Below, one piece after another: positions 19,188-57,826 of a stretch of 64,000 bases of DNA. Source of the stretch: Bacteroidota bacterium (GTDB taxonomy: Bacteria; Bacteroidota; Bacteroidia; Bacteroidales; UBA10428); NCBI GenBank assembly GCA_016699695.1, contig CP065006.1, forward strand, positions 3,229,435 through 3,293,434. Direction: 5' to 3'. The notes beneath the pieces were generated by a model that ran no database searches, was not told the origin of the DNA, and saw only the letters and a list, made by a program, of their open reading frames with translations. Position numbers and translations under genes: made by a program. How positions within the stretch are numbered: position 1 is the first letter of the stretch; the number at the start of each line of letters is the position of its first letter.

Positions 19188-19760
19188 TTGGTGGAAAGTA
19201 AAAAGCACGAACTGCTGCTGCGAGGGATAAAAAACCGCGATACACAAACTCTTAAGGCAGTGTACAAAGAGTTTTACCCTAAAGTTGCCGGTTTTATTGC
19301 CGGTAAAGGTGGGAGTGCAGACGATGCTAAAGATATCTTTCAGGAATCGCTCATGGTAATTTACAAACTTAGCTTAACAGATCAATTTACCATTGAAACC
19401 GATTTTGGAAGTTACCTGATAGGCATAGCCAAACGAATATATTTCAAACAATTACGACAAAAAGAAATTCATCATCGCTTTGTGGATGGATCGGAGAAAA
19501 CTTTTTCTGAGGATCATCCGTCTGATGTGGAAATTGAGAATGAGATTGAGCAGCATTTAATGCGTAAGTACCTTTTAGAGTTGGGCGAAATTTGTCGAAA
19601 AATACTGCTTTGGTCAGCCAGTGGAGTAAATAATGATGAAATTGCTGAGAAATTAGGGTATAAGAGCGAAAAAATTGTGCGTACAAAAAAACACAAATGC
19701 AAGAGCAGTTTAATTTCCTTAATTAAAGCCGATCCTTATTTTAAGGGTAAAAAGAGTTAA
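19188..19760 (+). CDS. ECF-type RNA polymerase sigma-70 family factor
   Basis: 190-aa ORF with region 2 (TLKAVYKEFYPKVAGFI...DAKDIFQESLMVIY...SYLIGIAKRIYFKQLR) and a region 4 HTH (CRKILLWSASGVNNDEIAEKLGYKSEKIVRTKKHKC). Only TTG (19188) or GTG (19191) start codons are available. Confidence 0.8.
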   Translation: MVESKKHELLLRGIKNRDTQTLKAVYKEFYPKVAGFIAGKGGSADDAKDIFQESLMVIYKLSLTDQFTIETDFGSYLIGIAKRIYFKQLRQKEIHHRFVDGSEKTFSEDHPSDVEIENEIEQHLMRKYLLELGEICRKILLWSASGVNNDEIAEKLGYKSEKIVRTKKHKCKSSLISLIKADPYFKGKKS

Positions 19761-19773
19761 TAGAGTCTTCTCT

Positions 19774-22548
19774 TTAATTTCTTTTTATCTTGAAGAATAA
19801 AAATCCTGCAAAAAGTATCATCGTAATGCCTCCGAAAATCCACCATGGTGACCGATAAACCGGATCTGCATTACCGATTAAGATGTAAGAAGACCAAAAA
19901 AATGGATGCTTGTATTGCTCCTGAGCGCTTTTTAGAAAATTGAGCTTTGCAAGACGCAAAGCCTCTGATTTGGATTTGCTTTTTAAAAGGTTTTTATAAA
20001 AATAATGCATCAAAGTTTTTCCCGATTCATCTTCTACTCTCCACAAGGTTATAACCAGACTTGGGCATCCGGCATAAAAAAATCCACGCGACAGACTCAT
20101 CACTCCTTCACCATTTTTAAGCTCTCCATGCCCCGAATTGCATGCGCTTAATACGGTGAGCTGTGCTTGCAGTTTTAATGAAAAAAGTTCGTTAGTATTC
20201 AAAAATCCATTGTCGTTGGTCAAGTTATTGTCTGCAAAAACCAATTTCGAAAACAATGGGTTTTTATCGTCGATAAGAGTGTGCATGGCCAAATGCAGAA
20301 TATCATAATTATTGGCAATCTCCAGGAAATTTTCTTTGGTTGCATCTTTTCCTAATGAACTGTTACCTCGTGTAAGTTTGCATACCATCAAAGCCTCTTC
20401 GAGGGCAAACGGCAATGGGAGCAGGTAATTTCGATAGTTTCTCACCTTATATTCATCGGTATTTTTTGCTTGCTGGCTAATTCTGGCAGAATAATCGGGC
20501 GCAACAGACAGGGTCTTATTCCATAATTTCTTACCTCCTCTGCCTAGCATTTCGGAATAAATCGAGGATGAATAGGCATAAGATATGGTATAATTGTAAA
20601 CCAGATAATTGAGGTTGTTAAAAGATTTGATGGGTAAGGCACTAGGTTTATCGACAAGCGCTTCAAAAGGAATATAGGAGATAAGTCCATCCGGAATTAT
20701 TACCAGGTTTTTTTTCAGCTTATCTTGATTCACTTTACTTAAAAGCTGTTGATATAGAAAAAACGCTCTTTTGTAGTACAAGCTATAAGTTGAATGGTTT
20801 TGACCTGAAAAATCAAAATTTTTAAACTCGTTGATATAGTTTCTAAGGCTGTCTTTTAGTGCATTGTTTAACTGGGTGCGATAAAAATATACCTCTTTTC
20901 GATTAATCACAAAGAGAAACAAACTCGTGTCGCTCAGGCTATATTCAAGCAAGGTTGTATTCCTATCGAGAGACGATTGCAGCGAGGGAATTGTAGAAAG
21001 ATTGGTTTTGTATTTTAGTGAGTAATATTCCGGAAAGTCTGAATCGAGTGTGTTTTTGAGCAATTCATATTGTCTGCTGAAGTTAAAGAGGTAGCTTTTC
21101 CACACATCAAGTTTAACCTGATCAGGCTTTAATTGTATGCTTTCTTCATATACTTTCTCGTTGTAAAATGCGATTTCACGTTTCAACCTGCTTTCTTTTT
21201 CTATTAGTGAATCGGGTATTCCTGCAAATTTTTTGGCTTTTTCTTCGCTCAATACTCCCAACAGCACCGAAGATTTACTTTGTTCAGCAAAATAGAATGC
21301 CTCTTCGAGGTATTGATATTGCCCGGTTACTGAGTATAATCTTTCAGCACAATCGAGACCCTTACTGTATACTTGACTTTCTTTGTCAGACAGGTATAGC
21401 TTGCTTTCTACCGATAAATACCCCTGCCTGATTTGGTGAATGACAAGCGCCAGCTCATGAAGGTTTTTGAGTGCAAATTCGAGGTATAAAAAATTCTTTT
21501 TCTGGGCGTACCAGGCAATATAGGTATCAGATAAAGTATTCAGTAAGCTTATTGTGTGAAGCAATGATCGATGCTGAATTTTAAGGGTATCGTTACCATT
21601 TTGATCCTGCAGGTATTTAAGTGCCATTTGATAATATGAAACTGCTTTTTCAAAATCATTCCTCACTTTCCAATAATTGCCATTAAGAACCATTATATCG
21701 AAGTAATACTTTGAATCGATGGACGATTGAATGTAAATAGATTCCGCTGACCTGATCGCTTTAAGAGCCAGTTCAGGCTGGTTAGTGCTCAAGTAATACT
21801 CAGCTAAGTGCTTGTATGAATCGCAATGTAGCTGAGGAGAATGATAATTGTGTTTATCGAATAATAAGAGACTTTGTTGGATAAAAAAGAAACTGCTATC
21901 TGCCATTTTTCGATTTTTAAAGCTTATTGCGGCCGTAATGTAGATATCATGCAGGGTTATGTACTGCTGAAGGTTGTGTCGCGAGAATTCACTAATGGCC
22001 AGGTTACTGAGCCGGGAGGCTTCTGAGTAATTCTTCCGGCTGTTTTCGAGCAATGCAAAGCGATTCAAGGTTTCTATTTTACGAAGGATGGCTTCTGTGG
22101 AATTCAAATTACCAAGTAGCTTCAAAGCCTCATCAAAGTATTCCACAGCCAGCGTAAAGTCACCCTTATGGCGGTATGCATTTCCCATGTTCGAATAAAG
22201 GTTAGCCATAGATAAGGCCGGGGCATCATTTAACATATAAATTTTCCTGGCACGGTTGAAATAATCTAATCCATTGTCGAAATGCCATTGATTTATGCAT
22301 AAAACGCCAAGGTTATTTAAATCGTGGGCAATATTTAAATGATTGGGTGGATAGAGTTGGAGCGATAATTCTAGTGTTTGCTTCAGAAGTGCTTCCGCTG
22401 TTATAAAATCGCCCGTGATAAATGCTTCCACACCTCTGTTGTTAAGAGTTTTGTTAGAATCTTCCAACGCACTAACTGGATTATCAGCTGGCTGACTTTT
22501 TAAACACTCGGCTGCAAAAAGTATCAAAATGATTAAGTGCAATTTCAT
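19774..22548 (-). CDS. exported TPR-repeat CHAT-domain (caspase-like) protease with a C-terminal membrane anchor
   Basis: 924-aa ORF with a signal peptide MKLHLIILILFAAECLKS. About 400 aa are TPR-like repeats (for example NLYSNMGNAYRHKGDFTLAVEYFDEALKL). The C-terminal CHAT domain carries His (ILHLAMHT) and Cys (LTVLSACNSGHG) dyad motifs. A terminal hydrophobic helix WWIFGGITMILFAGFLFF is followed by KIKRN. Confidence 0.85.
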   Translation of the reverse strand: MKLHLIILILFAAECLKSQPADNPVSALEDSNKTLNNRGVEAFITGDFITAEALLKQTLELSLQLYPPNHLNIAHDLNNLGVLCINQWHFDNGLDYFNRARKIYMLNDAPALSMANLYSNMGNAYRHKGDFTLAVEYFDEALKLLGNLNSTEAILRKIETLNRFALLENSRKNYSEASRLSNLAISEFSRHNLQQYITLHDIYITAAISFKNRKMADSSFFFIQQSLLLFDKHNYHSPQLHCDSYKHLAEYYLSTNQPELALKAIRSAESIYIQSSIDSKYYFDIMVLNGNYWKVRNDFEKAVSYYQMALKYLQDQNGNDTLKIQHRSLLHTISLLNTLSDTYIAWYAQKKNFLYLEFALKNLHELALVIHQIRQGYLSVESKLYLSDKESQVYSKGLDCAERLYSVTGQYQYLEEAFYFAEQSKSSVLLGVLSEEKAKKFAGIPDSLIEKESRLKREIAFYNEKVYEESIQLKPDQVKLDVWKSYLFNFSRQYELLKNTLDSDFPEYYSLKYKTNLSTIPSLQSSLDRNTTLLEYSLSDTSLFLFVINRKEVYFYRTQLNNALKDSLRNYINEFKNFDFSGQNHSTYSLYYKRAFFLYQQLLSKVNQDKLKKNLVIIPDGLISYIPFEALVDKPSALPIKSFNNLNYLVYNYTISYAYSSSIYSEMLGRGGKKLWNKTLSVAPDYSARISQQAKNTDEYKVRNYRNYLLPLPFALEEALMVCKLTRGNSSLGKDATKENFLEIANNYDILHLAMHTLIDDKNPLFSKLVFADNNLTNDNGFLNTNELFSLKLQAQLTVLSACNSGHGELKNGEGVMSLSRGFFYAGCPSLVITLWRVEDESGKTLMHYFYKNLLKSKSKSEALRLAKLNFLKSAQEQYKHPFFWSSYILIGNADPVYRSPWWIFGGITMILFAGFLFFKIKRN

Positions 22549-22742
22549 TCTGAAGAAATGAATAGGTAGATGAATAACATGAAAGTACTAAAATTTATTC
22601 AATTTAATATTCTAATAATCAACAAATTAATAAATAGGTGTTGTTTTTTTTTATTTTTTTCATTAGAAACCGGTGACATTTTAGTGTCCAGTGGTACTTA
22701 ATAGTAAAACAATGAATTATTATTCACTTATACATAAAAGCA

Positions 22743-22877
22743 ATGAAACTTTTTAACAAATCTTCAGAAAGAAAAAGCAGCGATTTTAATCTGGCTCAAA
22801 AGCAAGTATTAAGTGTAAAAGAATTAATGACTATACGCGGTGGCGATGAGCACGGTGGTATGATCATAAGAAAATAA
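22743..22877 (+). CDS. 44-aa peptide precursor with a double-glycine (bacteriocin/pheromone-type) leader
   Basis: Hand translation gives MKLFNKSSERKSSDFNLAQKQVLSVKELMTIRGG-DEHGGMIIRK, with stop TAA at 22875..22877. Residues LSVKELMTIRGG match the GG-leader consensus LSxxELxxIxGG at every position. It is too short for the supplied ORF track. Confidence 0.6.
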   Translation: MKLFNKSSERKSSDFNLAQKQVLSVKELMTIRGGDEHGGMIIRK

Positions 22878-22894
22878 TATCCAAATAGGCATTC

Positions 22895-22980
22895 AAATAT
22901 CCCAAAGCGGGTTTAATTTAACCTGGTTTTAACGGCACTCATTCCCTTAGAATATAATGTACCCCGCTTTGGTGATATTT
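22895..22980 (+). repeat. structured element A: 17-bp stem enclosing the conserved 18-mer TGGTTTTAACGGCACTCA
   Basis: The left arm aaatatcccaaagcggg (22895..22911) pairs with the right arm cccgctttgg(t)gatattt (about 22963..22980) with one bulge. The loop carries the 18-mer at 22924..22941. It starts 18 nt after the peptide stop codon. Confidence 0.55.
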
Positions 22981-23126
22981 GGAAAAATGGTCCAACTTTT
23001 TTTTGAGAAAGTTTGACTTAAAAAGTGGGATCAAATAACTTGGGAAACCAATTTGGCGGTTGTAAGCATTAAAGTTTAATACGTAATAGTTAGTAAAAAA
23101 ATGGAAAAATAAATTCCAACCTTCCC

Positions 23127-23195
23127 GGGCGGGACAAAGCTCTTTTGGTTTTGACGGCACTCAATATACCTCTCTTATCTTCTTTTGTTCCGCCC
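23127..23195 (+). repeat. structured element B: 13-bp stem enclosing the conserved 18-mer TGGTTTTGACGGCACTCA
   Basis: The left arm gggcgggacaaag (23127..23139) pairs with the right arm cttttgttccgccc (23182..23195), including two G-T wobbles that work only on the plus strand. The 18-mer at 23146..23163 differs from copy A at one base. In both copies the spacer from the 18-mer to the right arm is 20-21 nt (21 nt in A, 20 nt in B). Confidence 0.55.
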
Positions 23196-23378
23196 ACTTT
23201 TTTATACTTCTGAATATAGCATACAGATATAAAAGATACATAGATATTATTGTCTACTGAAACCTTAACCTTCTATTCTTTTACTGGTAACCCCAGGTAA
23301 TACGTGGATATATTTCTTTATTTTGCTCCCGAAAAATTTTTATGGGGTGCATTGGTGAATAACTGAACCCAAATTATT

Positions 23379-24140
23379 ATGGCTAAAGAACTGGATTACA
23401 CTCAATTTATTGAGCGATACCTGCAACAAGAAATGAGCCCAGCTGAAAAAGTATGGTTTGAAAAGGAATTGCAGGGAAACTCATTGTTACAGGATGAATT
23501 GCTCTTTTACCGAAAGGTAAACCAGGTGCTTGCTGAAAAAGAACTGGTCGATTTTAAGTTGCAGCTGGATGCAATTCACAGAGAAATTATACAAACTTCA
23601 GTTGGAGGTCAGCACTATATCAGACAATACAGAAAAAAGATTAACCTGCTGGCCGGAAGTGTGATGGCAGCTTCTGTCGTATTGAGTTTATATTTTCCAA
23701 ACCGTAAGATATCCGATCAGAATCTTTACAATCGCTATTTTGAACCAGCTTCCTTTTCAGTAAGTTACCGCGATGCCAGCGAGCAAGACAGAATGCTGAA
23801 GGAGGCTATGCAGTTGTACGAAAGTAAGCAGTATTCAGAAGCAATCAGTCATTTCGAAAAAATCATGATCATTGAACCTAACAAATATGGGATAAATCTT
23901 TATGCTGGGATAGCCCATATGGAATTGGCACAATACCCCCAGGCTATTCTTCGGTTCAACACGATTTTAACTCAGGATTATGGCCCATTTTCCGAATCGG
24001 CTAGCTGGTATTTGGGGCTTTGTTATTTGTATTCCAACGAGAAAACAAAGGCAAAAAATCTGTTCGAAGGTTTGATGCAATCCGACGGATATTACAAGCG
24101 CGATGCCCACCGTATACTTAAGCATATGAAAGGTAAATAG
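23379..24140 (+). CDS. single-pass membrane TPR protein, anti-sigma-factor-like
   Basis: 253-aa ORF with a soluble helical N-domain (YTQFIERYLQQEMSPAEKVWFEKELQGNSLLQDELLFYRKV) and one TM segment (LLAGSVMAASVVLSLYF). The C-terminus has TPRs (EAMQLYESKQYSEAISHFEKIM; YAGIAHMELAQYPQAILRFNTIL; WYLGLCYLYSNEKTKAKNLFEGL). There is no zf-HC2 motif, so the anti-sigma role is inferred from architecture and context. Confidence 0.6.
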   Translation: MAKELDYTQFIERYLQQEMSPAEKVWFEKELQGNSLLQDELLFYRKVNQVLAEKELVDFKLQLDAIHREIIQTSVGGQHYIRQYRKKINLLAGSVMAASVVLSLYFPNRKISDQNLYNRYFEPASFSVSYRDASEQDRMLKEAMQLYESKQYSEAISHFEKIMIIEPNKYGINLYAGIAHMELAQYPQAILRFNTILTQDYGPFSESASWYLGLCYLYSNEKTKAKNLFEGLMQSDGYYKRDAHRILKHMKGK

Positions 24141-24230
24141 TTTGATTGGAATTAGCCTTATACCAGATATTTATTAACGGGACAAATGTCTATTGCTTTA
24201 AATTGAAACAATTCTCAAAAATGATGTGAG

Positions 24231-25148
24231 ATGAACCCTATAAGGATGATCCAGGAATGGATCAAGGCATTTATGCCAAAACATCGGATTATAAGCGATT
24301 ACAATCAAATGGTAAGCCGGTTAAAACAACTTGAAATGCAAGTTGCACAAAGTTCACAGCAATTGGAGCTGGCAAAGGCAAGCTTCCTGAAAAACATCTA
24401 CCATGAAATTCGCACGCCCCTTAATTCCATAATAGGGTTTACAAATCTGCTTGATAATAAACACCTACTTGCTCCTGAAGAAAGAGAAGAATATACTAAC
24501 CTTATCAATGTAAATAGCCGTAAGTTTTTAAGCCTACTTGACGACATTATTCAAGCATCTCTGCTTGAAGCCGGTATGATAAAGATTAAGCCCGAACCTG
24601 TTTGTTTGGGCGAATTCTTTGATGAAAACCATAGTTTTTATTCTATCCGCCGACATACCCAGGAAAAGAATGCCATTGCACTTTTGCTAACGGTAGAAGA
24701 AGACATAAAGCAAAAAAGCTTTGTTTTTGACCGTTACCGAATAGCACAAGTGCTTACTCAATTAGTCGATAATGCGCTGAAGTATACTGATAAAGGAGTG
24801 GTGGAATATGGTTGCACAATTCAGAATGAACGTCTGGAGTTCTTCGTGAAAGACAATGCAATACCTATACTAATGCCTCAAAAGAGATTGCTGTTTAAAA
24901 AGTTCTCGAAATTAGAGGTATCAAAAACAAATGATGGCGGCTTAGGTTTAGGTTTGTCTATTTGCAAAGATTTGCTCCAATTAATGGAAGGAGATATTCT
25001 TGTAGAATCAAATCATGGACATGGAAACACCTTTATTTTTTCTATACCTGCCATTATCTCGAAGGATGAGAACAATTTGATAACTGAGCCAATAAAAGAA
25101 TCACGCATACATTTTTTTCAAAGAGCAACTACATATCGGGCTGTGTAA
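24231..25148 (+). CDS. cytoplasmic histidine kinase lacking a sensor domain (degenerate G1 box)
   Basis: 305-aa ORF with an N-terminal coiled coil, H-box FLKNIYHEIRTPLNSIIGF, N-box LVDNALKYT and G2 GGLGLGLSICK. Where DxGxG is expected the sequence reads VKDNAIPI. Confidence 0.75.
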   Translation: MNPIRMIQEWIKAFMPKHRIISDYNQMVSRLKQLEMQVAQSSQQLELAKASFLKNIYHEIRTPLNSIIGFTNLLDNKHLLAPEEREEYTNLINVNSRKFLSLLDDIIQASLLEAGMIKIKPEPVCLGEFFDENHSFYSIRRHTQEKNAIALLLTVEEDIKQKSFVFDRYRIAQVLTQLVDNALKYTDKGVVEYGCTIQNERLEFFVKDNAIPILMPQKRLLFKKFSKLEVSKTNDGGLGLGLSICKDLLQLMEGDILVESNHGHGNTFIFSIPAIISKDENNLITEPIKESRIHFFQRATTYRAV

Positions 25149-25160
25149 TTTGTATAATAA

Positions 25161-28100
25161 TTAACCAAGCGAATGCTCTTTTCTTGGCAACGTGAAAGAG
25201 AATGTAGTTCCCTTTCCCAGTTCACTATCGACCATTAACTCGCCTTGGTTTTTTTCAATAAACTCTTTGCAGATTATTAAACCTAAGCCAGTACCGTTTT
25301 CGCCTGCGGTACCGGTGGTAGAGAAATATTCGTCGATTCGGAAAAGTTTTTTGATATTTTCCTGCGATATTCCAATTCCGGTATCTCTTATTGCAATCAG
25401 GCATTTATCCTGCGAGATATCTGAGCAACTAATCGTGACAATTCCATTGTTTGCTGTAAATTTTATAGCATTACTCACAAGGTTACGAATAATAAGATTT
25501 ACCATATTGAAATCGGCCCATGCCTTTCCACTGCATTCCATTTTTGTTTTGATGGCAATGCTTTTTTTCTCAGCATTGCCAGTACTTAGAATAACAATCT
25601 GTTGAATTATTTCGTGCAATTGTATGTGGTCTGGTGTATACTTGATACGCTCAGTTTGGGTGCGAGCCCATTGAAGGAGATTCTCTAGCAGGTTATATGC
25701 ACTCTCTGAAGAAGTTTTAATCATACCCAAGAGATCAAGGCGCTGTTTCTCTTCAAAATCTTCAAAATTCCGCATGAGCAATTCCGAGAAGCCAAAAATG
25801 GCCTGGAATGGATTTTTTAAATCATGGGCAATTATAGAAAAGAATTTATTTTTTGTTGCATTTAGTTCCTCCAGTCGGGCATTTGTTTTTTTCAAGATAT
25901 CAGACTGCCGGTTTAACTCTTCGGCCTGTATCTGAATTTTTTCCTGCCTTTCCTCCAGTAATGTATTTACTTCTTTCAAACTTTCCGCTTGCTCAATTAA
26001 TTGCTTTTCAGTGTTTTTTTGCTTAGTAATATCCCGGCCAATGCCCACAATACCCATAATTTTACCATCGACATCTTTAAAAGGTACTTTGGTTGTTGAA
26101 ACTACTTTTTCCCTTCTTTCTTCATCAAAGCCAATTTCTTCTTTGTTAATCATGGCTTTACCCGTGCGCATAATCCTAACCTCGTCGTTGAAGTATTCTT
26201 GGGCTGCTTCTTTTGAAGGTGCAAGGTCAAAATCGGTTTTCCCAATGATATCGTCAAGGTTGTCGGTTTGCATAGTATCGAGCATTCGCTTATTCACAGT
26301 AATAAAGCGGCTTTCGGCATCTTTTATATAGATAAAGTCAGGCATGTTATCGATCAGGGTACGTAAAAGCGAACGTTCCTTTTCAATCATTTTATTTTGT
26401 TCTTCCAGCCATTCCGATTGTTTAAGTATTTCTTCCGAACGTTCCTCCAGCAATTGGTTGACTTCTTTAAGGTCTTCGGCTTGCTGTTCGAGCTGCTGTT
26501 GGTAATTTTTAAGTTCGGTGATGTCTTTTGTAATACCAACCAGTCCTAATATTCGCCCATCTTCGTCGAAATAGGGTACCTTGGTTACCGTCCGGAATAT
26601 CTTTTCTCCATCGTCAAGAACACGCAATTCTTCTTTGTTTATTACTGCCTTTTTTTGTGCAATAATTTGTTTTTCCAATTCGATGAACCTTTGCGCCTGG
26701 TCCTTTGGATAGAAGTCAAGATCGCTTTTTCCTTCAAGTTCATAGGACGAGTTAATTCCAAGTTTTTCCATCAGTGACTTGTTGGCCAGTACAAAGCGGC
26801 TTTGGGTGTCTTTGATGTAAATAGAATCGGGGATATTGTCGATAAGCACTCTTAGGAGGTTTCTTTCGTTTTCAACTATTTTATTCTGGGTTGCCAGTTC
26901 TGAGGATTGCTGTTGAATTTCTTCCTGACGTTCTTCTAGTACTACATTCACCTCTTTGAGGTAATCGGCCTGCTCCTGTAGTTTGATTTCGGTTTCTTTC
27001 AGAGATGTAATGTCTTTTCCAATTCCTACAATACCTTCTATTTCCCCATCGGCATTTCTGTATGGCACTTTGCTTGTTAGCAAATACATGAGGTTCCCGT
27101 TTTTATCCAGACTAGTTTCCTCAATGCCAATCATTGGGCTGCCTTTCGAAATAATCCGCTGATCGTCGGAAAAAAATTTCTTGGCCATTTCTTTCGGATA
27201 GATGTCAAAATCAGATTTTCCTTTAATTTCTTCCTCCGAAGCGATGTTCAAGGAATCGAGCATGTACTGATTGGCTGTAATAAAGGTGCTGTTTTTATCT
27301 TTGATGTAAACAAAATCAGGCAGGTTGTCGATCAGGGTGCGCAGCAGTTTTCGCTCACTTTCCAGTATTTTATTTTGTTCGCCTAATTCATCGGCCTGTT
27401 GGTTAATTTCTTCCTGTCTTTCTTCGAGCAATACATTAACCTCTTGCAGGTTTTGTGCCTGTTCAATTAACTTTTCTTCAGTTTCCTTAAGCTTGGTAAT
27501 ATCACGGCCAATGCCTACCAATCCTAGAATTTTTCCGTTTTCATCTTTAAATGGCACTTTAGTTGTAGAGCGAACCCTGATATTTCCTTCTTTGTCGAAG
27601 CCTATTTCTTCTTTATTAATCACCGACTGGCCGGTGTCCATTATAAATTTATCGTCCTTATAAAAGATATCAGCAATTTCTTTTGGATAGTAATCGAAAT
27701 CGGATTTTCCGAGAATTTCACTTCTCGATTTGGCTTTGGTAATCTCAATCTGTGCGATATTGGCATCTAAAAAGCAACATTCGCTATCTTTTATATAGAT
27801 GGCATCCGGCATATTATCTATCAAGGTACGTAGCAAAAGTCTTTCTTTTTCAATTTCCTCATTTTTCTGTGTCAACAACTCGTTGTAAAGATTTTGCTGA
27901 GTAGTGTCAGAAATTATTCCTAAAAGGCCTATTAATTTGCCATTTCTATTTTTAAGAGGGTATTTTCTTGTAACTGTGAATTTGAGTATTCCGTTGTTCT
28001 CGCTTCGCTGTTCCCGAAGCAATTCAGGCACATCATTGTATAGTATTTGCTGGTCTTCGTAATTGTATTTGGCAGCAATACTTTCTTCGTAAAGGTCCGA

Positions 28101-28403
28101 ATCGTGCTTACCTATTAATTCTTTCGGTGATGATTTTTTCAGTAAGCTGGCAAACTTTTCGTTTACCACGATATACTTTCCATAGGGGTCCTTAATAAAA
28201 ATGCTATCGGGAAGGTTGTTTAATAAGGTAATGAAGGGTACTGTTTCCTCGGGATTCAATTCGCTAAGGTCGCGTAGAATGCCCATTGGACCTTTGAAAT
28301 ATTTTAAATACAAGTAAATTCCAAGTGCTGTAATCAGCGCACCTGTCATAAAAGGAATAACGAATTGAAAGCTCAGGGTTGAAAAATAGGTAAGTGAAAT
28401 CAC
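25161..28403 (-). CDS. membrane-anchored multi-PAS sensor histidine kinase
   Basis: 1080-aa ORF with an N-terminal TM helix and five PAS modules separated by coiled-coil linkers. It then has H-box FFSIIAHDLKNPFQAI, N-box LVSNAIKFT, G1 IRDTGIGI and G2 GTGLGLIICKEF. Confidence 0.9.
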   Translation of the reverse strand: MISLTYFSTLSFQFVIPFMTGALITALGIYLYLKYFKGPMGILRDLSELNPEETVPFITLLNNLPDSIFIKDPYGKYIVVNEKFASLLKKSSPKELIGKHDSDLYEESIAAKYNYEDQQILYNDVPELLREQRSENNGILKFTVTRKYPLKNRNGKLIGLLGIISDTTQQNLYNELLTQKNEEIEKERLLLRTLIDNMPDAIYIKDSECCFLDANIAQIEITKAKSRSEILGKSDFDYYPKEIADIFYKDDKFIMDTGQSVINKEEIGFDKEGNIRVRSTTKVPFKDENGKILGLVGIGRDITKLKETEEKLIEQAQNLQEVNVLLEERQEEINQQADELGEQNKILESERKLLRTLIDNLPDFVYIKDKNSTFITANQYMLDSLNIASEEEIKGKSDFDIYPKEMAKKFFSDDQRIISKGSPMIGIEETSLDKNGNLMYLLTSKVPYRNADGEIEGIVGIGKDITSLKETEIKLQEQADYLKEVNVVLEERQEEIQQQSSELATQNKIVENERNLLRVLIDNIPDSIYIKDTQSRFVLANKSLMEKLGINSSYELEGKSDLDFYPKDQAQRFIELEKQIIAQKKAVINKEELRVLDDGEKIFRTVTKVPYFDEDGRILGLVGITKDITELKNYQQQLEQQAEDLKEVNQLLEERSEEILKQSEWLEEQNKMIEKERSLLRTLIDNMPDFIYIKDAESRFITVNKRMLDTMQTDNLDDIIGKTDFDLAPSKEAAQEYFNDEVRIMRTGKAMINKEEIGFDEERREKVVSTTKVPFKDVDGKIMGIVGIGRDITKQKNTEKQLIEQAESLKEVNTLLEERQEKIQIQAEELNRQSDILKKTNARLEELNATKNKFFSIIAHDLKNPFQAIFGFSELLMRNFEDFEEKQRLDLLGMIKTSSESAYNLLENLLQWARTQTERIKYTPDHIQLHEIIQQIVILSTGNAEKKSIAIKTKMECSGKAWADFNMVNLIIRNLVSNAIKFTANNGIVTISCSDISQDKCLIAIRDTGIGISQENIKKLFRIDEYFSTTGTAGENGTGLGLIICKEFIEKNQGELMVDSELGKGTTFSFTLPRKEHSLG
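25886..27845 (-). repeat. intragenic tandem array of four roughly 490-nt PAS plus coiled-coil modules
   Basis: Protein repeats begin at about aa 187, 351, 514 and 677 with ER(L/K/N/S)LLR(T/V)LIDN(M/L/I)PD..YIKD. Each ends in (E/D)IT.LK..E..L.EQA..L.EVN.LLEER.EEI. The units are also recognisably similar at DNA level. Confidence 0.8.
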
Positions 28404-33588: not shown

Positions 33589-35010
33589 ATGCATCGGGAG
33601 GTTTGGAGTAATTGCCTAAAAGTAATAAAAGATAACGTGCCCTCAATTAGTTATCGGACTTGGTTTGAGCCTATCATACCCTTGAGGCTTGAGAATAACA
33701 TTCTGACAATTCAGGTACCTAGTCCATTTTTCTATGAATACCTCGAAGAAAAGTACATTGAAATTATCAGCAAAACCTTACGTAAAGAGCTTGGTTATGA
33801 TGCCAAACTTGAATACAGTGTTGTAATGGAATACAACCCTGTTGAAGTAAGCAGTTCAACCTTTCTTAAGTTACCAGCGCAGAACCAAAAAGAAATTAAG
33901 AACAGACCTGTTTCAGTTCCGCTGAACGATGAAGAGAAATCCATTAAGAATCCCTTCATTATTCCAGGATTAAAGAAACTCGATATTGACCCACATTTAA
34001 ATCCAGAGAATTCATTTGCCAATTTTGTGGAAGGCGAATGTAACCGACTGGCCCGTTCGGCAGGTATTGCAGTTGCCAACAGCCCGGGTGGAACTGCATT
34101 TAATCCCTTATTAATTTATGGCGATTCGGGTTTAGGAAAAACCCACCTTGTTCAGGCAGTTGGAATTGAAGTGAAAGATCGTTTCCCCGATAAAACGGTA
34201 TTGTATGTCAATGCCAATAAGTTTCAGACTCAGTTTGTCGAATCGATTCGCAACAATAACCGCAACGACTTTTTGCATTTTTACCAGATGATTGATGTGC
34301 TGATCATTGACGATGTGCATGAATTTTCGGGAAAAGAAAAAACTCAGGATACTTTCTTTCACATTTTCAATCATCTGCATCAATCGGGCAAACAACTGAT
34401 TCTAACTTCGGATAAACCACCTGTAGAATTGCAGGGAATGGAACAACGCTTACTTTCGCGGTTTAAATGGGGGCTTTCGGCAGATCTACAGACTCCTGAT
34501 TTCGAAACCCGAATTGCAATTCTCAACCAAAAAACCTATAAAGATGGCATTCAAATGCCCGACGAGGTAATTGAATACATCGCCACACATATAACCGAAA
34601 ACATTCGTGAACTCGAGGGTGCCCTTATCTCTCTTTTGGCCCAATCGACCCTAAACCGGAAAGAGATTACCCTCGACCTGGCCAAAGAGATGATTGATAA
34701 ACTCATTAAAAATACGAAACGTGAGGTTTCAATCGATTACATACAGAAGGTGGTATGCAATTACTTCGATATAGGAGTAGAGATGCTTCAATCACGTACG
34801 CGTAAGCGCGAAATTGTTCAGGCCCGTCAAGTGGCTATGTATTTTAGCAAATGCCTGACAAAATCGTCATTGGCTACAATAGGAGCGCAGATAGGAGGCA
34901 AAGACCATGCAACAGTGCTTCATGCCTGTAAAACGGTAAATAATTTGCTCGATACCGACAAACATTTCAAAAATCAGATTGAAGACATTGAAAAAAAATT
35001 GAAATTCTAA
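33589..35010 (+). CDS. dnaA: chromosomal replication initiator protein DnaA
   Basis: 473-aa ORF with Walker A GDSGLGKTHL, Walker B LIIDDVHEF, sensor motifs and the C-terminal DNA-binding helix (REIVQARQVAMYFSKCLT...IGGKDHATVLHA). Confidence 0.97.
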   Translation: MHREVWSNCLKVIKDNVPSISYRTWFEPIIPLRLENNILTIQVPSPFFYEYLEEKYIEIISKTLRKELGYDAKLEYSVVMEYNPVEVSSSTFLKLPAQNQKEIKNRPVSVPLNDEEKSIKNPFIIPGLKKLDIDPHLNPENSFANFVEGECNRLARSAGIAVANSPGGTAFNPLLIYGDSGLGKTHLVQAVGIEVKDRFPDKTVLYVNANKFQTQFVESIRNNNRNDFLHFYQMIDVLIIDDVHEFSGKEKTQDTFFHIFNHLHQSGKQLILTSDKPPVELQGMEQRLLSRFKWGLSADLQTPDFETRIAILNQKTYKDGIQMPDEVIEYIATHITENIRELEGALISLLAQSTLNRKEITLDLAKEMIDKLIKNTKREVSIDYIQKVVCNYFDIGVEMLQSRTRKREIVQARQVAMYFSKCLTKSSLATIGAQIGGKDHATVLHACKTVNNLLDTDKHFKNQIEDIEKKLKF

Positions 35011-56050: not shown

Positions 56051-57826
56051 ATGAATTCAGAAACTCCCAGGAAAAAAATTAGTCTTTCGGGACTAAAAGA
56101 ACTCTTTAAACTATATCGCTTTATACGGCCCTACCGCAGGGAATATGCCCTTGGCATGCTTCTGCTGCTGATTAGTAGCGCGGCTAGTCTTGCTTTTCCT
56201 AAATTGCTTGGCGATCTGGTGGACATCGGTCAGGCCGGCATGATCAAGGAGCAGATTAACCGAATAGGATTGTTGTTGGTTGTAGTGTTGCTTTTACAGG
56301 CAACGGCTTCTTACTTCAGGATATTATTGTTTGTAAGGGTAACAGAAAAAACCCTCGCCGATTTACGGCGCAAGGTTTATAACCATTTAATTCGTTTACC
56401 GCTTAAATTTTTTCAGGGACGAAGGGTGGGCGAGCTGAATAGTCGCCTATCGGCTGATATTTCCCTGCTTCAGGATGCTATGACCACTACTCTGGCAGAA
56501 TTTATCAGGCAGATTTTGATTATTGTGGGTGGCATAAGCCTGTTGATGTTTACTTCTATGAAGCTTACCCTTTTTATGTTGGCGGTTTTGCCAGTGGTAA
56601 TGGTGCTGGTGATATTTTTTGGACGCTACATACGAAAGTTGTCGAAAGAAGCCCAGAACCAGGTGGCCGAATCGAATGTGGTGGTGGAAGAAACTCTACA
56701 AGGTATTCAATCGGTAAAATCATTTACCAACGAATATCACGAAATGGATCGCTATCGGGAAATAACCGGAAAGATTGCCCAAACCGGTATACAGAACGGA
56801 CGCATGCAGGGTGCTTTTTCGTCCTTCATCATACTAGGTCTCTTCGGGGCCATGGTGGCAGTTATCTGGAAAGGAGCTGACCTCTTAGGAAAAGGAGAAC
56901 TGCAAACCGGAGAGCTGTTTTCGTTTATTATCTATTCAGGCTTTATTGGTGGCACCATTGGTGGCCTGGCAAGTGTATTGGGTCGTGTGCAGAAATTTGT
57001 GGGAGCCACAGAAAATTTACTCGAAATCTTGGATGAAAAGGAAGAAACGGTTCAGGAAAATCTTGCATTGGTTCCCGAGCAAACCATCAAAGGTCGTATA
57101 CGTTTTGATAACCTGCGTTTCGAATACCCTTCGCGCTTAGGTACGGATGTGTTAACTGAAATTAGTTTTTCTGTCGAGCCCAATAACCTTATTGCCCTGG
57201 TAGGGCCCAGTGGTGCCGGCAAATCGACTCTTGTTTCGCTATTGATGCGCCTTTACGAACCCAGTTCGGGCCGTATTCTGTTTGATGGGAAAGAGTCGAC
57301 ACAGTATTCCTTAACGGCATTGCGTTCGCAAATGGCTGTAGTGCCTCAAGATATCTTTTTGTTTGGAGGTACCATTGCCGAAAACATTGCCTATGGACGA
57401 TGGGGAGCCAGCCATGATGAGATTGTAGAGGCTGCTAAGCAGGCTAATGCCTGGCAATTTATTTCGGAAATGAAGGATGGACTGGAAACCCTTGTAGGCG
57501 AGCGGGGTACGCAATTATCCGGAGGTCAGAGGCAACGCATTGCCATTGCCCGTGCTTTGTTGAAAAACCCGCAGATACTCATTCTCGATGAGGCCACCTC
57601 CTCGCTCGATTCTGAATCGGAACGTCTGGTTCAGGAAGCTCTGGAAAAATTGATGCAGGGACGCACTTCTATTGTCATTGCGCACAGGCTGGCAACCATT
57701 CGCAGAGCCGATAATATTATTGTGCTCGACAAAGGTCGCATAGTTGAACAGGGTACCCACGAACACCTCATGAAGCTAGACAAGGGCGTTTACCGAGGTT
57801 TAAGTGAGCTCCAGTTTGCAGTGTAG
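56051..57826 (+). CDS. ABC transporter, fused permease/ATPase (MsbA/multidrug-exporter type)
   Basis: 591-aa ORF with a six-helix type-I exporter TMD. It has Walker A GPSGAGKST, signature LSGGQRQR and Walker B ILILDEATS. There is no N-terminal C39 peptidase domain. Confidence 0.9.
   Translation: MNSETPRKKISLSGLKELFKLYRFIRPYRREYALGMLLLLISSAASLAFPKLLGDLVDIGQAGMIKEQINRIGLLLVVVLLLQATASYFRILLFVRVTEKTLADLRRKVYNHLIRLPLKFFQGRRVGELNSRLSADISLLQDAMTTTLAEFIRQILIIVGGISLLMFTSMKLTLFMLAVLPVVMVLVIFFGRYIRKLSKEAQNQVAESNVVVEETLQGIQSVKSFTNEYHEMDRYREITGKIAQTGIQNGRMQGAFSSFIILGLFGAMVAVIWKGADLLGKGELQTGELFSFIIYSGFIGGTIGGLASVLGRVQKFVGATENLLEILDEKEETVQENLALVPEQTIKGRIRFDNLRFEYPSRLGTDVLTEISFSVEPNNLIALVGPSGAGKSTLVSLLMRLYEPSSGRILFDGKESTQYSLTALRSQMAVVPQDIFLFGGTIAENIAYGRWGASHDEIVEAAKQANAWQFISEMKDGLETLVGERGTQLSGGQRQRIAIARALLKNPQILILDEATSSLDSESERLVQEALEKLMQGRTSIVIAHRLATIRRADNIIVLDKGRIVEQGTHEHLMKLDKGVYRGLSELQFAV

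Follow-up and report, generated by a model that had tools for sequence, protein, structure and literature searches.

A split module of ECF sigma factor, predicted TPR-CHAT protease and double-glycine leader peptide in Bacteroidota, a candidate peptide-signalling circuit

Described TPR-CHAT systems and the Bacteroidota locus

The closest known system to the gene module considered in this work is the DdvA-DdvS pair of Myxococcus. In Myxococcus xanthus, DdvA is a transmembrane anti-sigma factor fused to a periplasmic portion made of tetratricopeptide repeats (TPRs) and a CHAT domain, and it has been proposed that the CHAT domain carries out an autoproteolytic site-1 cleavage, which is followed by the action of RseP (PMC11506125). 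This fused form has been reported only in Myxococcota and in one Comamonas (PMC11506125). A further link between both kinds of proteins came from the type III-E Craspase, whose locus encodes Cas7-11, Csx29, Csx30, Csx31 and RpoE, and where the TPR-CHAT protease Csx29, encoded next to the sigma factor RpoE, cleaves a protein that controls RpoE (PMC10028731). The module described here lies in a stretch of 64,000 nt (the window) of a Bacteroidota bacterium of the lineage UBA10428 (assembly GCA_016699695.1, contig CP065006.1, positions 3,229,435-3,293,434 of the forward strand), and it comprises the genes for a sigma factor of the extracytoplasmic function (ECF) group, an exported TPR-CHAT protein predicted to be a protease, a peptide with a double-glycine (GG) leader, an anti-sigma-like membrane protein of 253 aa and a histidine kinase devoid of a sensor.

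The module shares with DdvA-DdvS the combination of an ECF sigma factor, presumed to be held by a single-pass anti-sigma factor with a small cytoplasmic domain, and a periplasmic TPR-CHAT protein of the separase/craspase fold, provided with a His-Cys dyad. However, DdvA is a single polypeptide, whereas in the window the two functions are encoded by two genes on opposite strands (23379-24140 and 19774-22548), and they are split in all related loci. As a consequence of this division, the anti-sigma-like protein has three TPRs of its own and the TPR-CHAT protein its own signal peptide and membrane anchor, while DdvA holds these parts fused. In addition, the anti-sigma domain of DdvA binds zinc, for which the window protein has no ligands. 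The genes under DdvA control form a CBASS/CRISPR defence island, whereas the module is found among housekeeping genes, with none of the PADLOC defence models matched in the window. Finally, DdvA has no associated peptide, Peptidase_C39 ABC transporter (PCAT) or kinase, in contrast with the split module, which has the peptide, the kinase and a structured RNA, and is joined in related loci by PCAT and HlyD-like genes.

The likeness to Craspase is that a TPR-CHAT gene adjoins an ECF sigma gene and that Csx29 is the best structural match of the protein encoded in the window; the comparison with Craspase made in a preliminary description of this DNA is apt at the level of the predicted fold. In contrast, Craspase works in the cytoplasm, is guided by RNA and becomes active with target RNA on Cas7-11, whereas the protease of the window is predicted to be exported and anchored, and is likely triggered by a peptide. 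Of the typical Craspase features (Cas7-11, a CRISPR array, a cas gene), none is present in the window: the search for CRISPR-like arrays found none in the 64 kb, and the largest open reading frames (ORFs) correspond to a PAS kinase, the CHAT protein and a DUF748 protein, none above 1080 aa and, therefore, none big enough to encode Cas7-11. The earlier claim that a sigma factor and a TPR-CHAT protein are paired here in the absence of CRISPR thus stands.

The preliminary description also stated that no experimentally described system of such architecture was known, and in this point it has to be amended, because DdvA represents a studied, fused precedent (PMC11506125). As for its proposal of a distinct signalling system, the split and peptide-linked form appears to be new, while the gating of an ECF sigma factor by a CHAT protein of the envelope is not. 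In the literature searched, which included the main text of the 2021 reclassification of ECF sigma factors, no description was found of a module combining CHAT, ECF and GG-peptide genes in Bacteroidota. CHAT goes unmentioned in that main text. CHAT neighbours have been reported for ECF54, but this group is actinobacterial and lacks an anti-sigma factor.

We favour reading the module as a circuit for peptide signalling: the CHAT protease would sense the mature peptide through its TPR array and would then cleave the anti-sigma factor; in our judgement, its chances of being right and of being wrong are about even. The evidence was gathered from some 70 related loci (designated L001 and so on) out of genomes and metagenomes. 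A scan of contigs with the CHAT protein provided a single true relative, L001, together with two uninformative cyanobacterial CHAT proteins. L001, from a Bacteroidales metagenome-assembled genome (MAG), is the closest relative, with a CHAT protein 77% identical. The 253-aa protein, when used as the query, disclosed a family of very uniform length whose members are arranged as in the window (L008-L012), and a metagenome scan with a 12-sequence anti-sigma alignment as the query added 68 loci. The loci were annotated with hidden Markov models whose seeds were sequences of the window and of a few orthologues, and the denominators of the synteny counts are the loci with enough flank. Two sub-clades, A1 and A2, were distinguished within the window-type clade, while clade B is made of L004, L005, L013, L074, L076 and L079. 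Protein folds were modelled with AlphaFold2 and structural matches were obtained with Foldseek.

The composition of the module agrees with that of the preliminary description, which had listed a 190-aa ECF sigma factor, a 924-aa protein with signal peptide, TPRs, CHAT domain and C-terminal anchor, a 44-aa GG-leader peptide divergent from it, two structured repeats, a 253-aa protein with a helical N-terminal domain, one transmembrane helix and C-terminal TPRs, and a sensor-less histidine kinase, and had placed the protease and the TPR half of the putative anti-sigma factor outside the cytoplasm. Each of these assignments, the topology included, was recovered by the profile, modelling, hydropathy and conservation results presented below.

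The TPR-CHAT protein and its cognate peptide

The 924-aa protein is encoded on the reverse strand, at 19774..22548. It matches Pfam CHAT over residues 598-893 (19870..20757, reverse strand) with an E-value of 2e-59, and TPR families over residues ~35-190. The AlphaFold2 model (pLDDT 88.9, pTM 0.86) consists of helical repeats from residue 24 to 526, followed by the protease fold and by a C-terminal helix (residues 902-923), and its best Foldseek matches were Csx29 (8eey_B, 3e-15), DdvA (8rot_A, 3e-13) and separases (~1e-12). A sequence search with the CHAT domain alone against the PDB gave no match, and the link to Csx29, DdvA and separase comes from the comparison of folds only. The two residues taken as the catalytic dyad in the preliminary description, His756 (nt 20281-20283, within LHLAMHT) and Cys803 (nt 20140-20142, within LSACNSG), are unchanged across 55 aligned CHAT homologues. 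Given this His-Cys dyad and an N-terminal TPR superhelix joined to a caspase-like fold, the protein is, according to its model, a TPR-CHAT protease, with proteolysis as its predicted activity.

Hydropathy indicates a C-terminal transmembrane anchor at residues 901-922, followed by the basic tail KIKRN (19783..19848, reverse strand). The signal-like hydrophobic segment at the N-terminus is kept among homologues, and the C-terminal transmembrane segment surpasses the hydropathy threshold in 26 of 32 full-length CHAT proteins, nearly all linked to sigma/anti-sigma genes, while it is missing in both CHAT homologues found without a sigma factor (L006 and L007). Because the catalytic domain is contiguous to this anchor, it is predicted to be positioned at the membrane surface, near the linker of the anti-sigma-like protein.

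Three further observations were made on this family. The start annotated in GenBank for the CHAT protein is 39 residues late (22432-22548 in the window), and the conserved signal peptide is thereby lost. The CHAT protein of L004 (L004:6001-9387) looks circularly permuted, presenting a signal peptide, the catalytic half with both His and Cys, transmembrane helices, TPRs and then the N-terminal half of CHAT, an arrangement that could be a true permutation or an assembly artefact. Lastly, the sigma-less and anchor-less homologues of Ekhidna (L007:5048-9567) have as neighbours a membrane-embedded LytTR protein (288 aa, with N-terminal transmembrane helices) and a 316-aa protein with a signal peptide, and they may be a further example in which a secreted CHAT protease is coupled to a regulator tethered in the membrane.

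The peptide precursor (44 aa, 22743..22877, forward strand) has DEHGGMIIRK as its predicted mature core. Its leader ends in LSVKELMTIRGG and, with L-12, E-8, L-7, I-4 and the two glycines, fits the GG-leader consensus, which demands hydrophobic residues at -4, -7 and -12 and an acidic one at -8. The ORF is kept in L001, with four synonymous changes in the short core (DEHGGMIIRK vs DEHGGIIRK), and a GG-peptide ORF occupies the intergenic region between the CHAT and anti-sigma genes in 48 of 66 loci. Judged from this conservation of its sequence, the gene is real. In the GenBank annotation of the window's own MAG the sigma factor, the CHAT protein, the TPR protein and the kinase are QQS50598-QQS50601; QQS50599 and QQS50600 follow each other with no peptide in between, and therefore the 44-aa gene is unannotated there.

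The connection between this peptide and the CHAT protein derives from the way in which both vary. Among 22 orthologues of the CHAT protein, mean pairwise identity is lowest over the TPR array (17-26%) and highest over the catalytic core (45-60%). A crucial case is that of L008 and L010, from two metagenomes, which are 99-100% identical over 14.7 kb outside one sharply bounded block of ~1.5 kb, where identity drops to 44-74% (L008:5050-6550, equivalent to ~21349-22877 in the window). The block contains the first ~395 CHAT codons, that is, the signal peptide and the TPR array, as well as the divergent intergenic region and the peptide gene. Accordingly, the two CHAT proteins share 24-56% identity over residues 1-400 and differ by a single substitution over residues 401-946 (98-100% identity), while the anti-sigma-like proteins are 100% identical and the sigma factors and kinases 99% each. 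The peptide cores of the pair are GDGDGGIILK and NEEQGGMVRE. In a second pair, L034 and L035, 3.2 kb are identical bar ~17 substitutions in 42 nt, which cover the peptide core and the stop-codon region (cores GKIGDGGVELI and GKIGDDGHDLL).

By its sequence pattern, such a peptide/TPR block is the signature of pherotypes, as found in agr or comCD, and the co-variation points to a direct contact of the mature peptide with the TPR array of the CHAT protein. For this reason the N-terminal ~400 residues of the latter (signal peptide plus TPR array; 21349..22548, reverse strand), so variable between alleles and so poorly conserved, are proposed as the peptide-specificity domain. Since the peptide co-varies with the TPRs of the CHAT protein and not with those of the anti-sigma-like protein, the former is the likelier peptide receptor.

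Forty-six nucleotides 5' of the peptide start, at 22672..22697 (forward strand), there is a bipartite promoter- or operator-like motif, GGTGAC-N14-GGTAC, with no other match in the 64 kb. Most loci of sub-clade A1 present GGTGAC-N14-GG(T/A)AC roughly 25-75 nt 5' of the start codon, sub-clade A2 has the palindromic TGTCAC-N15-GACATGT in the same place, and the 608 kb of loci contain practically no further occurrence of the motif. When it was compared with the classical ECF promoter (GGAAC-N16-CGT), the spacing and the -10 part gave a poor fit, and A2 has a palindrome.

The interval between the peptide and the anti-sigma-like gene contains the two structured repeats. Copy A (22896..22983, forward strand; fold z-score -3.7) and copy B (23118..23209, forward strand), which ends as a stem followed by a T-run, score 61.9 and 80.4 bits, respectively, with the covariance model. 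In both of them a long stem is built around TGGTTTTRACGGCACTCA, with the motif at 22925 and 23147. The consensus consists of an outer stem, GGCGAGATA / TATCTCGCC, enclosing the conserved TGGTTTTAACGGCAC and a variable loop, usually with a T-run after it. The stem covaries: compensatory changes affect five of its nine pairs in an alignment of 18 copies, and copy A shows a compensatory change with respect to L001. The model detected 23 copies in 617 kb, all of them on the coding strand of the peptide and in the same interval, and confined to sub-clade A1; the 21 copies outside the window come from L001, L008, L010, L011, L015, L016, L018-L023, L026, L029-L032, L034 and L035. A search of Rfam with the repeats returned no family. 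Because a second copy of the promoter motif precedes the element by 38-155 nt in L021, L016 and L015, the element may be transcribed on its own, as a small RNA under the same control as the peptide. Extra tandem peptide genes were also considered at these duplicated motifs and discarded, as none was present and the second copy precedes the RNA element.

With respect to export, 23 loci have a PCAT gene alongside, which follows the kinase gene in some and precedes the sigma gene in others, and an HlyD-like protein is encoded next to 14. An ABC exporter gene of the window (56051-57826) was considered as a PCAT and rejected, as its product has no C39 domain.

The co-diversification of the peptide with the TPR array gives an interaction and not its sign. 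Consequently, the peptide could also be conceived as a securin-like pseudosubstrate or inhibitor of the protease, or as a substrate to be destroyed, so that the sigma factor would be freed when the peptide is absent or non-cognate. Indeed, separase, a structural relative of the CHAT protein, is kept inactive by a bound peptide-like inhibitor, and many of the cores end in Lys or Arg, after which proteases of clan CD often cut. However, the cores span just 9-22 aa and many of them have no basic residue, and a dedicated promoter motif together with PCAT and HlyD genes fits a produced signal better than a constitutive inhibitor. We consider that a peptide acting in this negative manner is unlikely.

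The sigma factor, the anti-sigma-like protein and the kinase

The sigma factor gene (19188..19760, forward strand) converges with the CHAT gene and encodes a divergent member of the ECF group (group 4). Its 190-aa product exceeds the cut-off of NCBIfam TIGR02937 for sigma70-ECF factors (47.8 vs 42.9 bits, residues 22-168), its match to Pfam Sigma70_r2 is weak (21 bits, under the gathering score), and a profile made of four orthologues retrieved SigW from the PDB with an E-value of 1e-12, and also SigE, SigH and SigL. The protein contains the sigma-2 and sigma-4 regions only and falls in the ~170-200 aa range which, along with a match to an ECF profile, characterizes the group. A sigma factor of the same clade was found in 25 of 27 related loci. 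The 3' ends of the sigma and CHAT genes are separated by 13 nt in the window (19760-19774) and overlap by 14-50 nt in most related loci (for example, L008:3407-3420, L011:3450-3469 and L012:3356-3377), a convergence that may leave room for transcriptional interference or antisense control.

The 253-aa anti-sigma-like protein (23379..24140, forward strand) was assigned from its synteny, the profile of its N-terminal domain and its AlphaFold2 model. It comprises a zinc-less region resembling anti-sigma domains (residues 1-85), a transmembrane helix (88-106), a linker and three periplasmic TPRs (135-251), in agreement with the model, which displays three N-terminal helices, one transmembrane segment and three C-terminal TPRs. 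The sequence RQYRKK on the N-terminal side of the membrane helix fits a single-pass topology with the N-terminus inside. Pfam recognizes nothing but the TPRs in the whole protein. When the profile of the N-terminal 85 residues was compared with the PDB, five weak matches were obtained, and three of them are anti-sigma domains: RslA (3hug_B, E=0.017, exactly on the HxxxCxxC motif), RsrA (0.66) and DdvA (8rlz_A, 0.72). The zf-HC2 family matches 3 of 15 family members, at best with 2e-4. Furthermore, in clade B the homologues come directly after the sigma gene (L004, L005, L013, L074 and L076); in L004 the sigma factor, a 254-aa homologue and the CHAT protein form one operon, and the homologue carries HAAHCSLC, a canonical HxxxCxxC. 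The profile matches, the zf-HC2 hits and the operon position in clade B support, falling short of proof, the notion that the N-terminal region is a mostly zinc-less class I anti-sigma domain.

Arg131 (nt 23769-23771, forward strand) is invariant in 42 sequences from both clades. It is located in the periplasmic linker, predicted to be unstructured, between the membrane helix and the TPRs, and it can be put forward as a candidate cleavage position. The family to which the protein belongs includes 1,635 representatives at 50% identity (E <= 1e-30). Some ~500-aa proteins (P0214, P0218 and ~40 more) have three anti-sigma-like motifs in tandem at the N-terminus, before the transmembrane segment and the TPRs. 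Weak Pfam matches to Nif11, a leader domain of natural-product precursors, appeared in 4 of 15 N-terminal domains, along with one Nif11 match in the PDB, a likeness that probably reflects the helical pattern only.

The 305-aa histidine kinase (24231..25148, forward strand) is made of HisKA and HATPase_c domains, lacks sensor and transmembrane segments and is predicted to be cytoplasmic. Its gene is immediately 3' of the anti-sigma-like gene in 42 of 50 loci, and both are probably co-transcribed. The H-box, with the phospho-acceptor, is conserved throughout. Several lineages have degenerate ATP-binding motifs: in the window kinase the G1 box (residues ~205-215) reads DNAIP and not DxGxG, and in sub-clade A2 it is the G2 box that is degenerate.

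These features bring up an explanation centred on the kinase, in which the 253-aa protein would be the sensor partner of a three-component system, the sigma factor and the CHAT protein would constitute a separate or downstream branch, and no anti-sigma factor would be cleaved. The persistent adjacency and common orientation of both genes and the want of an input domain in the kinase itself speak for it, as does the palindromic motif of A2, which suggests a dimeric DNA-binding regulator. However, members of the family are found in clade B directly after the sigma gene, with no kinase at all, and the N-terminal domain resembles anti-sigma domains; besides, no conserved response regulator was found in the related loci, and several lineages have kinases with degenerate ATP-binding motifs. 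Such an explanation seems to us quite unlikely.

Still less probable, in our opinion, is that the locus produces a bacteriocin or another natural product, the GG peptide being antimicrobial or modified and the sigma pair, the kinase and the CHAT protein serving regulation, processing or immunity with no signalling involved. GG leaders plus PCAT and HlyD proteins are certainly the classic bacteriocin machinery, and bacteriocin families too have hypervariable cores. In contrast, the cores of these loci are very short, mostly acidic and proline-rich, with neither cysteines nor amphipathic character, there is a single peptide gene per locus and no immunity or modification gene conserved across them, and the variation of the peptide is matched by that of a periplasmic TPR array belonging to the producer itself.

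The last alternative is challenged by the synteny of the module. The preliminary description had made its proposal dependent on the genes being syntenic in related genomes, and they are so across distant relatives: in addition to the counts given above for the kinase (42/50), the sigma factor (25/27) and the peptide (48/66), 36 of 45 loci have the CHAT gene upstream of, and divergent from, the anti-sigma gene. The exceptions belong mostly to clade B, in which the sigma gene is followed by the anti-sigma gene, with CHAT adjoining and neither kinase nor peptide. Gene order and orientation are maintained down to 24-30% protein identity, and the flanking genes differ between lineages; therefore, the conservation goes beyond local collinearity, and the module is not a chance neighbourhood. 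Most ECF sigma factors do regulate adjacent genes, but a conventional, stress-responsive sigma/anti-sigma pair with the CHAT protein, the peptide and the kinase as mere regulon members or neighbours is very improbable in view of this conserved arrangement, of a C-terminal anchor specific to the sigma-linked CHAT proteins, and of the fact that TPR-CHAT proteins have been independently tied to the control of ECF sigma factors in DdvA and type III-E systems.

The proposed circuit and its implications

The favoured peptide-signalling circuit can be outlined as follows. The double-glycine precursor would be cut and exported by a PCAT with an HlyD-like partner, and the CHAT protein, anchored in the inner membrane, would bind the mature peptide (9-22 aa; DEHGGMIIRK in this case) on the periplasmic side through its fast-evolving TPR array; gene content and sequence co-variation are the basis for these two steps. 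Binding would then switch on the membrane-proximal caspase-like domain, which would clip the anti-sigma factor on its periplasmic side, possibly in the linker near Arg131, and a subsequent intramembrane proteolysis would free the ECF sigma factor. The sigma factor, or a partner regulator, would in turn act on the conserved promoter that precedes the peptide gene and the structured RNA next to it, resulting in autoinduction. From protease activation to feedback, the cleavage of the anti-sigma factor by CHAT included, the sequence of events is an extrapolation from DdvA and from the classical form of regulated intramembrane proteolysis. Finally, the sensor-less kinase may add a second cytoplasmic input or output.

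A number of facts weigh against this circuit. The pherotype-like cassette is clear in one strain pair and in one peptide-only pair. The similarity of the N-terminal domain to known anti-sigma domains stays under significance even for RslA (E=0.017), and the window protein lacks the zinc ligands, with E30, N34 and L37 in their positions. In the window clade, moreover, the CHAT gene is found between the sigma and the anti-sigma genes, and an anti-sigma-like protein parted from the sigma factor and paired with the kinase might signal to the latter instead. No PCAT gene was found across the 64-kb window, nor within reach in its closest relatives; export is thus assumed, with PCAT and HlyD presumably encoded elsewhere in the genome. 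The motif upstream of the peptide is not clearly of the ECF type, and the palindrome of A2 suggests that a dimeric regulator would suit it better. Lastly, cleavage by CHAT in DdvA is itself a proposal and not a demonstrated reaction.

The circuit, as proposed, would combine traits of several classical pathways. It resembles the ComC/ComAB/ComDE and agrBDCA systems in having a GG precursor with a PCAT, a probable autoinduction and a hypervariable peptide/receptor cassette in otherwise identical strains. However, the receptor in those systems is a polytopic histidine kinase and the output a LytTR regulator, whereas here they would be a periplasmic TPR array borne by a protease and an ECF sigma factor. 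In addition, ComCDE and agr are Gram-positive systems, while the host of the module is Gram-negative and needs a partner of the HlyD type, and its kinase has no transmembrane sensor and no response regulator conserved in the loci. The module would share with RseA/DegS/RseP, RsiV and FecR a single-pass anti-sigma factor whose extracytoplasmic part is removed by a site-1 protease before site-2 cleavage, but the site-1 protease would in this instance be a caspase-like enzyme of clan CD with a TPR array, and not a PDZ serine protease, a signal peptidase or an autocleaving domain. It differs from the RRNPP receptors, which are cytoplasmic TPR regulators of re-imported peptides, in that both TPR domains are predicted to be extracytoplasmic and no helix-turn-helix-TPR regulator is encoded. 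In Nostoc, a single process of cell-cell signalling, heterocyst patterning, involves HetF (the founding CHAT protease), HetC (a PCAT) and the PatS peptide (PMC10986499); nevertheless, their genes are unclustered and there is no sigma/anti-sigma pair, and this has to be taken as an analogy and not as homology of modules.

Downstream of the module, on the reverse strand, a histidine kinase of 1080 aa with five PAS domains is encoded at 25161..28403 (Pfam). It is a recurrent though not universal neighbour in sub-clade A1, and can be counted in the module only with uncertainty: it is convergent in L001, L008-L011, L015, L021, L026, L029, L033 and L035, and absent from A2, and in some loci it appears beyond inserted PCAT and HlyD genes. 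The other neighbours are housekeeping genes such as dnaA, pfk, nusB, purC and phoH. With dnaA (33589-35010) ~9 kb away from the module, the chromosomal replication origin is probably close by. A role in a defence island was considered and rejected, in view of these housekeeping neighbours and of the lack of PADLOC matches.

Peptide-based cell-to-cell signalling is seen as a speciality of Gram-positive bacteria, and we know of none in Bacteroidota, which are dominant in guts, sediments and waters. It is possible, although we hold this view tentatively and would not be surprised to see it fail, that the module constitutes the first peptide-pheromone pathway of Bacteroidota, built on a new principle: a linear peptide exported by PCAT, a site-1 cleavage by CHAT gated by a TPR array, the release of an ECF sigma factor, pherotypes generated by swapping a peptide/TPR cassette, and a structured RNA and a kinase as extra outputs. 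With its peptide gene missing from the GenBank annotation, this biology escapes standard pipelines. The module offers a testable candidate, with a defined 10-residue peptide, a receptor domain delimited by natural alleles, a catalytic cysteine and a promoter. Considering the size of the anti-sigma-like family, it is also widespread. If the proposal is true, it would represent a new kind of cell-to-cell signalling pathway in Gram-negatives and would provide DdvA-type systems with the ligand they still lack; Craspase, DdvA and the present module would then share a general rule, by which TPR-CHAT proteases act as gatekeepers of ECF sigma factors.

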